Source: Promethearchaeia archaeon (GTDB lineage: Archaea; Asgardarchaeota; Lokiarchaeia; Sigyniarchaeales; SOKP01). From it: a stretch of DNA of 64,000 nt. Each line of letters opens with the position of its first letter. Position 1 is the first letter of the stretch. Under the pieces are notes generated by a model. That model had not been told where the DNA came from and did not search any database. It saw nothing but the letters and a program-made list of their open reading frames with translations. The DNA lies in assembly GCA_046483985.1 (NCBI GenBank), contig JAWOCD010000056.1, positions 32,780 through 96,779 on the forward strand. The letters are read 5' to 3'. Made by a program: the position numbers and the translations under genes. Shown piece after piece: positions 9,250-16,193 of this stretch.

Positions 9250-10779
9250 TTATTCGTTATCTTTTAATTCGAGGTACTTTAAAAATGCTCGTACACCATT
9301 TTCCATAGCACACCGGATATTTCTGCTTCGCCAGTCATCTCCAATATCATCACATGGTCTTCGTTCTTTATTAATTATTTCAAGATTATCTCTGTCTGTA
9401 TGGTAGTAAGCGAGATAATCAGGGTAACGAATTCCTTCTATTGAAGTTGCCTTTAATCCTCCTCTTACTAACCCTGCTCCATCCGTACCCCCTGCAATTC
9501 CAGGCATTTCGCCCATTTTTATTTCAAATCCTAATTCCTTACAAGCTTTTGCTAATAAATTATAAACTTCGGGGCTTAAATCAGTTCGTGTGGTGTTTTC
9601 ACGAGTATATATCCGGATAAATCTGGCAATAGTTAAAGACTCAAAATTAATACAAGTGGTATCAATTTGATTATATTCCTCTGCATGTCTTTTTGCAAAT
9701 GCCTCTGATCCCCTCAGTCCCACCTCTTCGCAGCCCATGATGGCGATAACGACTTCTGTATTGTCTGGAACTAAATCAGAATTTTGCTCTTTCCAATCAT
9801 CTAAAATTTTTGCAATACACATACAAGGCGCTACAGCAGTTAAATTATCTACAGCACCCGGAGTTGCTTTCTTACTAACAAAAAAGAAGAGCGTTCCAAA
9901 GGATGGAATAGAGAGCATGAATAAAAATTGAGCGGTTTTTACTAAGGTAGGATTTACAAATATATAATTCCAAAACAAGATATCAATGAGAATGGTATAA
10001 GCGGTAATCGCTAGAATTACTATAACGGCCAAGATATCGAAGTTTTTAAAGGCACCAAAAAAGACTTTTTCACTCTTCCCAATTACAAGGAAAAATACGG
10101 CAAATAAAATTGGCACTGCCATAATAAGGACATTTACAATCAAAGTAAGGATTGTTAATTCTCCAAGGATACTGTAAATAAATTGCAGTATATATAATAC
10201 CAAGAATTCTACAAGAGTGACAATCCCTCCGATTAAAAAATATGCATAACCTTGGCGAAGATATTGAATTAAGTTAAACCGGAACGCAGAATCGATATGG
10301 CCGCTCGCTACCACTCTTTTCTTAACTTCTCCCTTGGGTTTAATAACTCCCACCACATTTTGCGACGTTTTCTTTTCATAGGGAAAAATTTTTGGAGTCC
10401 ATTCCTTATAAGATAAAAATTGTTTGTAGATGATCAAGACAATAAATCCTGCAATTGCTAAGCAGATAATTGAGATGATTAATGGATTCAAATCACTGAG
10501 TAAAAAAATTAAAAAACTAAGCAGCCAAAACCCTAATGAAAGCCGTATCCATCCCAAAAACGCTCTGGGATAAGTTTCAAATTCCTCAATATCTACAGAA
10601 TCACAACGATCTTCTAATTCATTTGCACATAATTTCGCGGCTTCTCTCTCCGAGTCACTTGCCGGTGCACGGGGCCCAACTTCATCGATTATTTTTTTGA
10701 TTGTATTATACATGTAATCTGAGTTTTCATCTGAAATTTCGTATTTCTGAGCCGAGTCAGCATTGTTTTCTGTTGACAT
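9250..10779 (-). CDS. Membrane-embedded M28 family metallopeptidase
   Basis: GHIDS, GAVDN, CEEVGLRGS, GGTDG and YHT motifs with inserted TM helices. Confidence 0.85.
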   Translation of the reverse strand: MSTENNADSAQKYEISDENSDYMYNTIKKIIDEVGPRAPASDSEREAAKLCANELEDRCDSVDIEEFETYPRAFLGWIRLSLGFWLLSFLIFLLSDLNPLIISIICLAIAGFIVLIIYKQFLSYKEWTPKIFPYEKKTSQNVVGVIKPKGEVKKRVVASGHIDSAFRFNLIQYLRQGYAYFLIGGIVTLVEFLVLYILQFIYSILGELTILTLIVNVLIMAVPILFAVFFLVIGKSEKVFFGAFKNFDILAVIVILAITAYTILIDILFWNYIFVNPTLVKTAQFLFMLSIPSFGTLFFFVSKKATPGAVDNLTAVAPCMCIAKILDDWKEQNSDLVPDNTEVVIAIMGCEEVGLRGSEAFAKRHAEEYNQIDTTCINFESLTIARFIRIYTRENTTRTDLSPEVYNLLAKACKELGFEIKMGEMPGIAGGTDGAGLVRGGLKATSIEGIRYPDYLAYYHTDRDNLEIINKERRPCDDIGDDWRSRNIRCAMENGVRAFLKYLELKDNE

Positions 10780-10841
10780 AATATTAGTTCAACCTTAGAT
10801 TATAAAAACTTTGATTATGTTTAAGTTCTTCACTTTTAAAT

Positions 10842-11852
10842 CTATCTTGAACCAAATTCTGTTTTATACCATTCTATAGTTTTTTCGATTGCCTCTTCGA
10901 ACGAAATTTGTGGTACATATCCCCAGTATTCTCTTTGCTTTATCCGAGTGGAAGAAAAGATCGTATTTTGATAGTTTTAAAGTATACATGGAGATGGTAG
11001 GCATTTTTTTTCTTAGAAATATCCTGTAGAATAAGTCGATTAATGCCACAAAAGGTGCAGCCAGATTATAGGGAATGCTTACATCCAGGGGGTCCACCTT
11101 TAATTCGTTACAAATTGCTTGAATGAATTGTCTCATAGTAATGTAAGGGGGATCATCATCCGCAATAAGAAAAGTTTCGCCAGGAGCGTCTGGATGTGTT
11201 CCCGCTTTTTCCAAGGCGTTGGCTAAATTTTCTACATAAACATAACAAAGTTTAGACTTTCCTTTATTAATGTAAGGAATATTCTTACCGGAATCGAGTC
11301 TTTGGATGATTTCCCGTGCATTCAATAGGTCATGGGGTCCAAACGGAAGAAATCCCGGGCGAATGATAACCACCTCCATCTCATCCATATGTTCTTTTAA
11401 GAAGTTCTCTGACTTGATTTTTGATTTAATGTAAGGTCGTGTATACCATCTTGCCTTCTTAATCGCGGTTGTTTCGTCAGCTCCTTCAAAGTCTTGAAAT
11501 TCATGGACCACCAGGGAACTCATATGAACTAAGCGCTTAACACCCGCTTTCGACGCTTTAAAAAAAACATTAGTTGTTCCTTTAAAGTTTATATTAAAGA
11601 TTTGCTGAGACCAAGCATTTGAAGGTTTTGCCGCCAAATGGTAGACAGTTTGTACTCCCTCCATAGCGGGTTCAAGGGTTTTAGGGTTAGTCACATCCCC
11701 ATAATATATCTCACAGTTGACCCCTCAAGAAACTGCTCATTTGTGCCTTTTAATACCAATGCTCTCACTGAATGACCTACTTCGATAAGCTTTTCAACTA
11801 AGTTACTTCCGATGAACCCATTTGCTCCCGTCACTAAAGTTTTCATAGACAT
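10842..11852 (-). pseudogene. NAD-dependent epimerase/dehydratase (extended SDR, 3-beta-HSD-like), broken by two frameshifts (possibly sequencing errors)
   Basis: VTGANGFIG N-terminus and YxxxK motif; frame changes at G4 runs at 11721-11724 and 10921-10924; repair gives EGVNCEIYYGDVTNP and ILGYVPQISFEEAIEKTIEWY. Confidence 0.85.
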
Positions 11853-11974
11853 ACAAAGAATAATCTGGCGTTTTTTAGTCTTGTTATTCAAAAGAAATCA
11901 TAACTTAGGTCATAAACTATAAGAAAAAGCTTTAATAATTACCAAATGGTCTTCCATTCAATGATGTGATTAAT

Positions 11975-12133
11975 ATGAAAAAGAGAGAGAATAACTCAGA
12001 AAAGAATATTGATGATCTTTTAGACCAAACATTCGAAAATCAAGCCGAGATTCATCATAAATGTAAGATAAGGGATGATCCAGCCAAAAAGCAGAAAAAG
12101 TGGGAAGAAAAATACGGTAAAAAAAAGGAATAA
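11975..12133 (+). CDS. Small charged hypothetical protein (52 aa), below the ORF-track cutoff
   Basis: MKKRENNSEKNIDDLLDQTFENQAEIHHKCKIRDDPAKKQKKWEEKYGKKKE fills an intergenic gap; GTGA RBS-like motif upstream. Confidence 0.5.
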   Translation: MKKRENNSEKNIDDLLDQTFENQAEIHHKCKIRDDPAKKQKKWEEKYGKKKE

Positions 12134-12137
12134 TACG

Positions 12138-15098
12138 TTATTTTAAAAAACCTGGTTTATAACCTTCAAATTTATCCTCTTCCGTATCGGGAGAGTAATT
12201 ATCCCTCCATTTATTGAAAGTCTCAAGAAATTCCTCCTTTTTCTCTGGTTTCAACGGCTCACGGATCATACGGAGTTTACTGATCCATTGGCGCATATCT
12301 TTCAAGGCCATGGAATAGCCTTCACTTTCTAAAATATCATCCATGATAAGTTGGAGTTTTTTACTTATCTCAAATCCCTTTAATTCATCCAATTCCGCAA
12401 GAATTTTGTCGAATTTATCCAATTTTTCTTTATCCTCCTCTGAAACTTCCGAGGAGGGTTTTTTCGGCTTATTTTGACCCGGTTTCTGAACTTTCGATCT
12501 CACTTTTTTTTGTTGAGGCTCTGGTTGGGTTGAAGTTTTCTCCTCTTTTCCTTGAATCTTTTTTTTTTCTTTTTCTGACCCTTCTTCAGAATCCAGTTGA
12601 AAATCGTCATACCATTTCTGGAATTCTTCGAGAAAATCATCTTTTAAGGATTCTGGTAATCTTTTTCGATTCATCCGCAACTTTCCCTTCCAAAACTTGA
12701 GAACTTTCGGAACAGAAGCAAAACTTTGCTTCTCCATAATAATGTCCATTATATTTTGTAATTTTTTACTCACTTGTGCACCAGTGTAATTATTAACACC
12801 GGTTAAAAGGTCATTTGCAAGTGCATTCAAATCAGTTTTATCTTCGGTTTCCCCGTTTGAAGGAGTTTCTGCAAGCTTTGGCGAACCATATTCCCCTACA
12901 GTTTGTTGGGTACTTGCCTCAGTACCAGAAGGGAGAATCTTTTTTTGGGGAGATGCTTTTCGAGATTTACGTTTTGAAGAGGAAGATATAATATCGTTTT
13001 TCCATTGCAGAAAATCTTTGATTAAAGCGTCTTTAAAGTCCTCATCTAACGGGGTTGATTTCTCCGATAATTTGCTTTTCCATTCAATTATTTCAGAAAA
13101 TCCTTGAAATCTCAGAATTAGTTCAATAAATTGAGATATTTGGTTACTGATCTGTTCTCCCGTTAATTTATCCATCTTATCAATAAAAAGATTAAACAAT
13201 TCCTCAATTTTTTCTTTATTTATTTCGCGCTGTTTCTTTTGGAATATTTCGATTTGGGATTTCTTTCCCTTTTCCTTTTCTTCTTCAGAAGGAACTTGTT
13301 TAAGTTGTGGCGGCTCTGCCAACTCATAGTCTGAAATCTTTTTATTATATTCTTGAATTTTATTAATTACTTCTTTTTTATCCTCTTTACCCAAAGTTTC
13401 ATGTATTTTTTTAAGTTTCTTTCCCAAAAGTTTTAATTCCAATACATTTAGAGAAACCCCTTCCTTTTGAAAAGTAAAATTAAGTGCATTTTCAAATAAA
13501 TTGCCAATCTCATAGCCACTATACGTGTTAATATTCTCTAAAACTTTATTGAATCTGGAGGTTATTTCTCGATTTTTTTCATACGTAGCTTCTTTCCATT
13601 TTTCTTCAAAAAGTTGTCGAAATTGGGTTAAATAGTCTTTATTACTCGTAATAAACCCCAAAACCTCATTTGATTGTCTTTCTGCTTGTTTATTATAATT
13701 CCCAAAAAGGAGTAACGATTCCTCCTTTAACAGTCCAATTAATTCATTATTTTCTAACCTTTTATATTCATATTTATCAAGTCCTTTCAATAATCTTATT
13801 AATCTGTCAGAATGAGGTTCTGAGGATATAATCCTTATTTTTTGTTTTTGAGATGATATTGGTTTCACTTTTTTTTCCGTCTTGTTTTTTTTCTTTGGTT
13901 GGGAGTGCTCGGTTACTTCCATTTTTTTAAGTTTGCTTTTTAAGTCTTCCCTACTTTCAAGACCCAAAATCTCCAAGGGCATAAACTTTTCAATTTCTGG
14001 TATTAGAATAAGTGCATCGCTATGGGGATCCTTTAAAGATTCCAATAGTACATCTTTGAATTTCCGTATACTATTCATTGGAAGTAGGTCTTGTAAATTA
14101 CCAATACGGGCGTCAGAGTATACTTTGATAAGATCTTTCAAAAGACCCACGGTTTCCTTAATCTTCTCATTCACATGAGAAAAGTTTTCATTTAAGATTT
14201 GAATCGTCTTGTCTTGCACAGAGTCTGCCAATTGGTCAAGTCTTTTTTCAAGATTGTTTTTTTTCGAGAGGAGAAGCTTATGAAGTTTTTTCATTTCACC
14301 CGTAAAGATATTCATTATTCCCAGATAGACCGAATTTTGTTCAAATTTTTGTTCTAAACGAAAAGACAATTTAGAGTTCAGAGTTTCCCGGATACCCTCA
14401 AATTCACTTGAAATTATATCTTGAATTTCCTGTGCCTTTTTATGGGTTTCCAATGTCATTATATCCTTAATCCTACCCTTTATGCCATCCCATTGAGCAT
14501 CACTGATGTTCAGTTTTTCAAGTTCGTCTGGAAATTTATTCTTCAATTTGATTATTTCAATCACTACACTCGCCATTTCTGAACTTACCGTCTCTTTTAG
14601 TGTCTCTTCATAATCGTTTAAAAAGGCAGTAATTGATTCTTGATCTTCCAAGCTGCTTACCAGTTCCTTGGTTTCCTTTCTTATGGTTTCCGTGTCTTCA
14701 TCAATATCGTCTTTTAGTTTCTTAAAGTCCTTATATAATGTATCTAATGATAATGTTTGGTTTTTTTCAAAAACGTTTTCCAATTTCTCTCCGATAGTTT
14801 GGTTTAAACTTTCCTTCTCAGTTAATAAGGCCTTAATCTCCAATAGATATTCATTAATGGGTCCAAACGGCGGTAATGCTTGATAATGAGTTGGTAAAGT
14901 GTGATTTTGGTAAGGGATCTTAATAAGCAGCTTTTTTTCGATTAATTCTTTGAGAATTTCTTTAATTTCTTCTTTTGTACACTCTCCATTTAGAATTTCC
15001 CTCAGTTCGCTTATAGTCCTTGGAGGTTTACCCAAGATCGCAAAATAGATTTCATTTGCTAGTTTTGAGATCTGCGGTAATTTGAATAAACTCTTCAT
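12138..15098 (-). CDS. TrmB-like wHTH + coiled coil + four C-terminal Vps28-CTD-like helical repeats
   Basis: N-terminal EIYFAILG...TISEL...EILKELIEKKLL...YQALPP; long heptad region; four ~70-aa repeats in about 12196-13556. Confidence 0.65.
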   Translation of the reverse strand: MKSLFKLPQISKLANEIYFAILGKPPRTISELREILNGECTKEEIKEILKELIEKKLLIKIPYQNHTLPTHYQALPPFGPINEYLLEIKALLTEKESLNQTIGEKLENVFEKNQTLSLDTLYKDFKKLKDDIDEDTETIRKETKELVSSLEDQESITAFLNDYEETLKETVSSEMASVVIEIIKLKNKFPDELEKLNISDAQWDGIKGRIKDIMTLETHKKAQEIQDIISSEFEGIRETLNSKLSFRLEQKFEQNSVYLGIMNIFTGEMKKLHKLLLSKKNNLEKRLDQLADSVQDKTIQILNENFSHVNEKIKETVGLLKDLIKVYSDARIGNLQDLLPMNSIRKFKDVLLESLKDPHSDALILIPEIEKFMPLEILGLESREDLKSKLKKMEVTEHSQPKKKNKTEKKVKPISSQKQKIRIISSEPHSDRLIRLLKGLDKYEYKRLENNELIGLLKEESLLLFGNYNKQAERQSNEVLGFITSNKDYLTQFRQLFEEKWKEATYEKNREITSRFNKVLENINTYSGYEIGNLFENALNFTFQKEGVSLNVLELKLLGKKLKKIHETLGKEDKKEVINKIQEYNKKISDYELAEPPQLKQVPSEEEKEKGKKSQIEIFQKKQREINKEKIEELFNLFIDKMDKLTGEQISNQISQFIELILRFQGFSEIIEWKSKLSEKSTPLDEDFKDALIKDFLQWKNDIISSSSKRKSRKASPQKKILPSGTEASTQQTVGEYGSPKLAETPSNGETEDKTDLNALANDLLTGVNNYTGAQVSKKLQNIMDIIMEKQSFASVPKVLKFWKGKLRMNRKRLPESLKDDFLEEFQKWYDDFQLDSEEGSEKEKKKIQGKEEKTSTQPEPQQKKVRSKVQKPGQNKPKKPSSEVSEEDKEKLDKFDKILAELDELKGFEISKKLQLIMDDILESEGYSMALKDMRQWISKLRMIREPLKPEKKEEFLETFNKWRDNYSPDTEEDKFEGYKPGFLK

Positions 15099-15397
15099 AA
15101 TAATATCAACTAAAGTTAGGATTAGTTTTGAATAAATACGTAAATACCTACATAAAATTATATTCCTTTTGCGGTTATCACTAAATATATCTATTATTCT
15201 CTTTTAAATTATCTTTTTTCAAAAAATTAAAATAGAAAGTTTCAAAGTTTCAAAATTATTGAAGGTTGAAACTAAAAGGAGAAGAATAATCTGATATGAA
15301 TTTTGTGACTTTGTATCATATTCAAGAGGGAAAAATGATCATTTCCAGAAAAGGATCTAAAAATATAGAATTCTAAACATGATTTATTCGTCTATTT

Positions 15398-16193
15398 TTA
15401 AGCTGGAAGCATATGCAACCAATAAAGTATGAGAAAATCATTAAACAGATTAACTATGGAATGTAAAATCATTCCATACCAGATAAAGTCTAATTTTAAG
15501 GCGGCATAGCCAAGTAAAGGTCCCATCACAAGGGAAAGAGTAATTTCTGAAATAGCCTTCCCGATATGATATAAAGTTGTAATCACAGTTTGAATAACCA
15601 ATATTATAATTATCCCCTTAATTGTGGTTTTCTTCCGTCTAAGCCCAAACTGCAAGTAGCCTCGCATCGTCACTTCATAGGCGTAAAAATAGAAAAAGTA
15701 CAATGCCTCATAATAGATAAAAATAAGCCAATTTGTTCCTATCAGTTTAGTTAACGGATATTCGGCTTGCATGACAGGATCCTGTGAAGCAAAAATTGCC
15801 ACTATAAGAAGGATAGGAATTATTATGATAGTGAGTGATAAACCTAACTTTTTATTACCCCATCGTAGTCCATAATCACGAAAATCGCCCTTAAAATAAT
15901 ATTTTACGATAAGATACGGCACTAAAAAGAATAAAAACATAGTGCAAACGAATTGGTATATATATTGCCAGAAATCCAACCATAGGTTATCTCCAAGGAT
16001 TGGCTTAAAATACAACCAAATCCTTTGAATAGCCAGATTTATTTATAGACCATTTTGCAACCACCCAATATATGATAGTAACGGTAATAACTGAAAGCAC
16101 GACCATCTTTCCCTTGTTATTGAATATTTTCTTAATCTCTTCTGAACACCTGGGAGCGATATCGGTTTCAGAGTTCATTTTATTTAAAATCAA
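15398..16193 (-). pseudogene. CPBP (Abi/CAAX) intramembrane protease, apparently split by one frameshift near 16005-16045
   Basis: YEVTMRG, HIGK and H-x3-N motifs; the upstream 62-aa hydrophobic ORF overlaps the main ORF in another frame. Confidence 0.65.

Follow-up and report, generated by a model that had tools for sequence, protein, structure and literature searches.

An Asgard archaeal protein combining a TrmB/TrmBL2-like N-terminal half with four tandem bundles that resemble the Vps28 C-terminal domain

A gene on the minus strand (12138..15098) of a 64,000-nucleotide stretch of DNA from a Promethearchaeia archaeon of the Sigyniarchaeales (GenBank assembly GCA_046483985.1, contig JAWOCD010000056.1, positions 32,780 to 96,779; this whole stretch is referred to here as the window) encodes a protein of 986 amino acids (aa), designated P0001. 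The open reading frame (ORF) starts with an ATG at position 15098 and includes its stop codon at 12138, and Met1 is conserved across 41 homologues. P0001 homologues are annotated only as hypothetical proteins, from metagenome-assembled genomes (MAGs) of Promethearchaeota/Lokiarchaeota. The source genome (G000) consists of 128 contigs with a total length of 4.06 Mb and a completeness of 97%. A first-pass annotation, made from the DNA sequence, had described a winged helix-turn-helix (wHTH) of TrmB type, a long coiled coil and an alpha/beta domain, followed by four repeats likened to the C-terminal domain (CTD) of Vps28, a protein of the ESCRT machinery (sorting complexes of the endosome required for transport). 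The wHTH, the long helical region and the alpha/beta domain were all recovered in the present analysis, the match of the wHTH to TrmB being weak.

The four repeats, each of ~85 aa, occupy the C-terminal half of the protein and were detected with a profile built only from single-copy bundle domains of other proteins (domain E values from a search of the 8,383 ORFs of the genome). Repeat 1 (aa 507-593, 13320..13580, minus strand as are all P0001 features below; E 1.6e-11) is the most divergent of the four, with a Leu replacing the Trp of the W..KL motif. It is followed by repeat 2 (aa 625-710, 12969..13226; E 3.7e-10), repeat 3 (aa 751-840, 12579..12848; E 1.9e-13) and repeat 4 (aa 887-975, 12174..12440; E 2.2e-24). 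These coordinates agree within ~25 nt with those of the first-pass annotation, and the outside profile places all four with E values of 1e-10 to 1e-24. BLASTP comparisons between repeats ranged from E 2e-15 (repeats 3 and 4, which share 40% identity) to 1e-4 (repeats 1 and 3).

An alignment of 66 non-redundant repeat instances reproduced the consensus proposed earlier, as F..L...L.G.EIS..LQ..D.ILE..G.S....I..W..KL......L....K.......W, with near-invariant columns G22, L56 and L63. The repeats are separated by linkers of 31-46 aa rich in K, E, S, P and Q: linker 1 (aa 594-624, 13227..13319) is K/E/Q/P-rich, linker 2 (aa 711-750, 12849..12968) S/K/P/G/T-rich and linker 3 (aa 841-886, 12441..12578) K/S/E/Q/P-rich.

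Structure prediction of repeat 4 with AlphaFold2, using the 66-sequence alignment, yielded a four-helix bundle with a predicted local distance difference test score (pLDDT) of 86.4 and a predicted template-modelling score (pTM) of 0.74. A Foldseek search of this model against the PDB returned no significant E value; a high TM-score together with a high probability was obtained only for Vps28 CTDs (2j9v, TMq 0.72 and root-mean-square deviation 2.2; 2j9w, TMq 0.66 and probability 0.84), all other matches having a probability of at most 0.25. Repeats 1 and 4 were modelled separately, and for both of them the Vps28 CTD was the top match among solved structures, on which the repeats superpose as a four-helix bundle.

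The solved Vps28 CTDs (yeast 2J9U/2J9V and Xenopus 2J9W; C-terminal half of PF03997) are likewise up-down four-helix bundles of ~90 residues, and they have in common with the repeats a W..(K/D)L motif in helix 3, a P/L in the loop and an aromatic residue ending helix 4. P0001 differs from Vps28 in the lack of a Pfam match, in carrying four tandem bundles fused to a TrmB-like part, and in the absence of the N-terminal core (steadiness-box) domain, its own N-terminus being the TrmB-like wHTH and the rod.

Profile-profile comparison with hhalign was performed against Vps28 sequences from Asgard genomes (25 non-Loki Vps28 proteins and 25 from the host's own family) and against 21 C-terminal domains of a PCI/UFL1-like protein in which Pfam recognises a Vps28-C domain (C59 type, described below). 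When the Vps28 CTDs were pooled into a single broad alignment, the repeats matched it with a probability of 84-88% (P 3-7e-6, score 33.6-36.3), helix n pairing with helix n in agreement with the structural superposition, and the result was the same for repeats of multi-copy proteins, for single-copy relatives and for both pooled. Seven reversed-sequence controls of this comparison scored 13-23, and 12 helical decoys of the same lineage, which were segments of P0001-family rods and of Vps22 as well as N-terminal domains of Vps28, scored 10-22.5 in 24 comparisons. For reference, comparing the canonical Vps28 CTD with the Pfam-recognised C59-type domain gave a score of 38.2 (probability 88.6). 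Against non-Loki Asgard Vps28 CTDs only, the repeats gave a probability of 58% (P 1e-4, score 29; reversed controls ~11), and against the Vps28 N-terminal domain they scored 10.8-13.6.

The resemblance to Vps28 put forward in the first-pass annotation is thus supported by a four-helix bundle whose best solved-structure match is the Vps28 CTD and by a profile match to the broad alignment that is in register and above all controls. Taken over all alignments, the sequence support for this relation is moderate and not conclusive. On the basis of fold and profile similarity, the repeats probably belong to the Vps28-C bundle superfamily as divergent members, and they lie outside the Pfam VPS28 family as defined.

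Other searches returned little. P0001 and the repeat profile gave noise only against PDB sequences (Rab27A, FliS and a designed protein), and P0001 had no matches in NCBIfam. A profile search of 1.84 billion proteins recovered 133 proteins, each one a member of the P0001 family, and no sequence bridge to Vps28. An attempt to widen the Vps28 alignment to eukaryotes returned 16 proteins, all of them archaeal.

The bundle domain was present in all 25 genomes of the host's own Asgard family (E<=1e-5). Among 168 domain-bearing relatives, 96 carry one copy, 8 carry two, 15 carry three, 17 carry four and 32 carry five, so that three to five copies occur in 64 homologues. Within the surveyed genomes, multi-copy proteins were confined to the present one and to three that belong to a single other genus. 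At the other end of the size range, P0125 (86 aa, metagenome contig L094) is a stand-alone bundle that passes the Pfam cut-off for EntA_Immun (26.5 versus 22.1 bits), a family named for the immunity protein of enterocin A; this likeness probably reflects an analogous four-helix bundle, not kinship. A relationship with EntA_Immun was set aside, as the P0001 repeats have no such match and P0116, a relative of P0125, derives from a Lokiarchaeota MAG.

The kinship with Vps28 has to be weighed against convergence, by which a four-helix bundle specific to this lineage would have reached the same fold; P0001 would then act as a rod protein of TrmBL2-like type, in the nucleoid or as a structural element, whose bundles self-associate or bind non-ESCRT partners. 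Several results weigh against kinship and are as expected from convergence. Pfam VPS28 (PF03997) did not match P0001 up to an E value of 10, touched only two of the 66 repeats (best E 0.038) and matched none of the 20 relatives scanned. Comparison with Vps28 CTDs of the Loki family alone remained at control level with a shift of one helix, for which reasons this alignment was taken as spurious, and comparison with the C59-type domain alone gave a P value of only 0.03. EntA_Immun passed its cut-off with the small member P0125, and such bundles therefore cross-match easily.

Furthermore, a survey of 125 genomes covering 26 other Asgard families did not find the domain in any of them (E<=1e-5), a restriction that one would not expect of an ancient ESCRT module, yet one that fits fast divergence. 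ESCRT genes were not found near the P0001 gene in the window or on the contigs of three orthologues, the ESCRT cluster of this genome (Vps22, Vps25, Vps4 and Snf7) being located on another contig. Against convergence stand the broad profile comparison, which is in register, exceeds every reversed and decoy control by 10-20 score units and equals in strength the match of Vps28 to an accepted Vps28-C domain, and the finding that the Vps28 CTD is the top structural match of two separately modelled repeats. We consider convergence rather unlikely.

The N-terminal half of P0001 opens with a wHTH domain (aa 1-85, 14844..15098), within which the TrmB family PF01978 matched aa 15-77 weakly (E 7e-4, 19.8 bits, below the cut-off of 25.6 bits). 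PF01978 matched 9 of 31 family members at E<=0.1 (best E 4.7e-5), and the single-copy relative P0128, of paralogue type, exceeded the cut-off with 29 bits. Further weak matches were to winged helices (RPC34, MotA and ST0148).

The wHTH is followed by a long amphipathic helical rod (aa 86-334, 14097..14843), which contains nine Pro or Gly residues in 249 aa and shows a hydrophobic periodicity peaking at 3.63 residues (power 2.9, compared with 1.54 for the 99th percentile of shuffled sequences). A period of 3.6-3.7, not the heptad value of 3.5, was likewise observed in 39 of 41 homologues, and rod lengths fall into two discrete classes of 187 and ~249 aa. Judging from its sequence, the rod is probably a coiled coil.

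The alpha/beta domain (aa 335-505, 13584..14096) is predicted to adopt a PLD-like fold, split at about aa 385-425 by a disordered K-rich insert (pLDDT<50 at 404-416). Its best structural matches were TrmB and TrmBL2, ahead of MITD1, and its structural alignment to 2f5t is limited to chain residues 110-241. The domain corresponds to the PLD-like N-terminal subdomain of the TrmB effector domain and, as there, is preceded by a helix. The HxK(x)4D motif of PLD/Nuc phosphodiesterases was not found in aa 335-505: none of the three His residues (contexts PHSD, EHSQ and PHSD) has a Lys two positions later, and the family consensus is SSExHxN. We regard the domain as catalytically dead. The sugar-binding C-terminal beta-barrel of TrmB is absent, repeat 1 following directly after the PLD-like domain.

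On the predicted model, the alpha/beta domain is the PLD-like domain of TrmB/TrmBL2, and the whole N-terminal half is therefore regarded as a TrmBL2-like module, its first 505 residues following the TrmBL2 plan with a much longer pairing helix. Compared with TrmBL2/TrmB of the Thermococcales (5BQT/5BPD, 3QPH and 2F5T), the order of wHTH, helix and PLD-like domain is the same, and P0001 shares with TrmBL2 the lack of the sugar-binding beta-barrel of TrmB. The differences lie in a linker helix of ~250 residues versus ~30, a PLD-like domain that carries a disordered or repeat-bearing insert across the P0001 family, four extra bundles behind it in P0001, and a wHTH match below the Pfam threshold.

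The insert in the PLD-like domain varies among homologues. In five-copy members (P0002, P0003, P0008 and others), an extra bundle copy with its linkers lies inside a surface loop of this domain; the equivalent site holds the disordered K-rich insert in P0001 and nothing in three-copy members. This loop is a hotspot for domain-in-domain insertion.

Five further bundle-bearing proteins are encoded by this genome (708, 925, 995, 312 and 200 aa). The 708-aa paralogue, with a wHTH, a PLD-like domain and a bundle, has a P0001-like plan, and the 925-aa and 995-aa proteins each combine a wHTH with a bundle. The 312-aa protein (C99:52962-53897, minus strand; L128:4960-5898) ends in a bundle (E 2.4e-16), and its gene, which has an 8-nt overlap with a Roadblock/LC7 gene, precedes a gelsolin-repeat gene. 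The 200-aa protein (C82:26199-26798, plus strand; L068:9200-9802) also has a C-terminal bundle (E 2.9e-8), and its gene is divergent from a Ras/Arf-like GTPase gene. Bundle paralogues thus adjoin eukaryote-like trafficking and cytoskeleton genes, which we count in favour of a Vps28-C-like docking role; small stand-alone bundle members were found to have no ESCRT neighbours either.

The same neighbourhoods could also be read differently, with the winged helix serving as a protein-protein module, as in ESCRT-II and PCI proteins, and P0001 acting in the cytoplasm as a scaffold for the network of trafficking and cytoskeleton proteins of Asgard archaea (small GTPases, Roadblock and gelsolin), to which it offers its bundles as docking sites. 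Such a scaffold would fit two bundle-bearing proteins adjoining Roadblock/LC7, gelsolin and GTPase genes, a TrmB match under the Pfam cut-off, and the weak TrmB match also given by the winged helix of this genome's Vps22. A PLD-like fold is moreover also present in MITD1 (Foldseek E 6.6e-3), a membrane-binding ESCRT-III partner. The order of wHTH, helix and PLD-like domain is, however, exactly that of TrmB/TrmBL2, the PLD-like domain matches these proteins better than MITD1, and TrmBL2 binds DNA, as stated in the titles of PDB entries 5bqt and 5bpd. A scaffold without DNA binding is accordingly judged quite improbable.

A conventional TrmB-type transcription regulator, in which the bundles would be sensory or phosphotransfer (HPt-like) domains, is the least credible of the explanations considered. 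No conserved His occurs in the 66-sequence repeat alignment, whereas HPt and CheA P1 phosphotransfer domains carry a phospho-accepting His on helix 2, and no HPt Pfam match was found in P0001 or in the 66 repeats. Moreover, known regulators have neither a rod of 250 aa nor a domain repeated four times in tandem with disordered linkers, and the sugar-binding beta-barrel subdomain of TrmB is missing.

The gene neighbourhood was considered as a functional clue and rejected. Across the window and the contigs of three orthologues, the neighbours were genes for an Rce1-like protease, an epimerase, an M28 peptidase and a thiolase, for a helicase, a methylase and an actin, and for enoyl-CoA hydratases, i.e. 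metabolic or unrelated functions, and their sharing reflects synteny between close relatives. Window positions 9250-16015 and the contig that carries homologue P0003 (locus L098; 30% identity) share the order Rce1-like protease, P0001 gene, NAD-epimerase and M28 peptidase, with OsmC and a radical SAM gene close by. This shared order is probably synteny among relatives, not a functional unit.

A canonical Vps28 of ~215 aa was not found in this genome by Pfam, by an Asgard Vps28 hidden Markov model run on the 8,383 ORFs or by tblastn with Vps28 proteins of the sister genus. It is present in most of 25 sister genomes of the same family, and its absence here could be due to a gap in the 97% complete assembly or to real loss. 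A Vps28-C domain was recognised in a 797-aa protein on contig C59 of this genome (C59:43674-46064, minus strand; L043:5675-8065), where Pfam VPS28 matched with 25.7 bits at model positions 88-180. This protein consists of a Zn ribbon, DDRGK/PCI/UFL1-like winged helices and the C-terminal VPS28 match, and is kept at ~790-800 aa in nearly all sister genomes. Its architecture is already described by Makarova et al. 2024 (PMC10936438) and in the preprint of Liu et al. 2020 (10.1101/2020.10.19.343400).

According to Makarova et al. 2024, Asgard multidomain proteins with a Vps28-C domain are common and have been proposed to reach ESCRT-II without ESCRT-I, the ones ending in Vps28-C being viewed as archaeal stand-ins for ESCRT-0 cargo adaptors. 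The published fusions resemble P0001 in their C-terminal bundle, their lineage-restricted multidomain make-up and, sometimes, their HTH or PCI domains, and carry a single Vps28-C recognised by Pfam/HHpred, combined with adaptin, longin, TPR, Ig or PCI domains. Measured against them, the P0001 family has a more divergent bundle in three to five tandem copies and a TrmBL2-like rod, and its five-copy homologues have one bundle inserted inside another domain. No paper combining 'Vps28' and 'TrmB' was found, and a structure-based Asgard survey (PMC12962969) mentioned neither. A description of a tandem Vps28-C-like array was likewise not found in the literature covered, which does not extend to Fig. 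6B of PMC10936438, where this architecture may be drawn. Asgard multidomain proteins ending in Vps28-C are thus already published, and what is new here is the tandem array. Vps28 itself is not known to carry its C-terminal bundle in more than a single copy.

Because of the domain families present and the disordered linkers, we favour (probability roughly 0.55) a reading of P0001 as a TrmBL2-like DNA-binding rod that carries a flexible string of four divergent, Vps28-C-like docking bundles. By analogy with TrmB/TrmBL2, from which we infer DNA binding and dimerisation, head and rod would dimerise and bind DNA, the pairing helix of the TrmB/TrmBL2 plan having grown into a rod of ~250 residues. 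Each bundle would dock a partner protein independently of the others, and the eight bundle sites of a dimer would provide a multivalent, avidity-driven tether.

By analogy with Vps28-C, the partner might be ESCRT-II (Vps22/Vps25) or an ESCRT-III subunit, in line with what has been proposed for the published Asgard Vps28-C fusions (PMC10936438); two-hybrid data link Loki ESCRT-I (Vps28 and/or Vps23) with Vps22 (PMC9192718). With no ESCRT gene nearby, the adaptor role is therefore one that we infer, and the link of P0001 to ESCRT is put forward tentatively, as a possibility that is doubtful at present. Complex prediction of this genome's Vps22 with repeat 4 gave a score of 0.00, which is evidence neither way.

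A more specific scenario, which we hold to be unlikely, is that the DNA-anchored rod recruits ESCRT-II/III to the nucleoid through eight Vps28-C-like modules per dimer, as a Lokiarchaeal counterpart of CdvA. CdvA of Crenarchaeota, a coiled-coil protein of archaea, both binds DNA and recruits ESCRT-III, and thus sets a precedent for a DNA-to-ESCRT tether. It has a PRC barrel and, at its C-terminus, a peptide to which the winged helix of CdvB binds, and its similarity to P0001 is a functional analogy only, with no relation in sequence or fold. Such recruitment, if true, could link the chromosome with division driven by ESCRT or bring DNA into vesicles that ESCRT forms, and would represent the first use of tandem Vps28-C domains for avidity.

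P0001 would extend the adaptor idea, in that a Vps28-C bundle can diverge too far for Pfam to detect, while its fold and profile-profile comparison still reveal it; the adaptor repertoire may therefore exceed the present catalogue. The joining of tandem bundles to a DNA-binding rod resembling a chromatin protein suggests that DNA, or the nucleoid, is the tethered object. If the ESCRT link is false, P0001 is still a well-defined Asgard TrmB-headed rod protein of a little-studied kind; if it is true, the protein would offer a testable handle on chromosome-membrane coupling in Lokiarchaeia.

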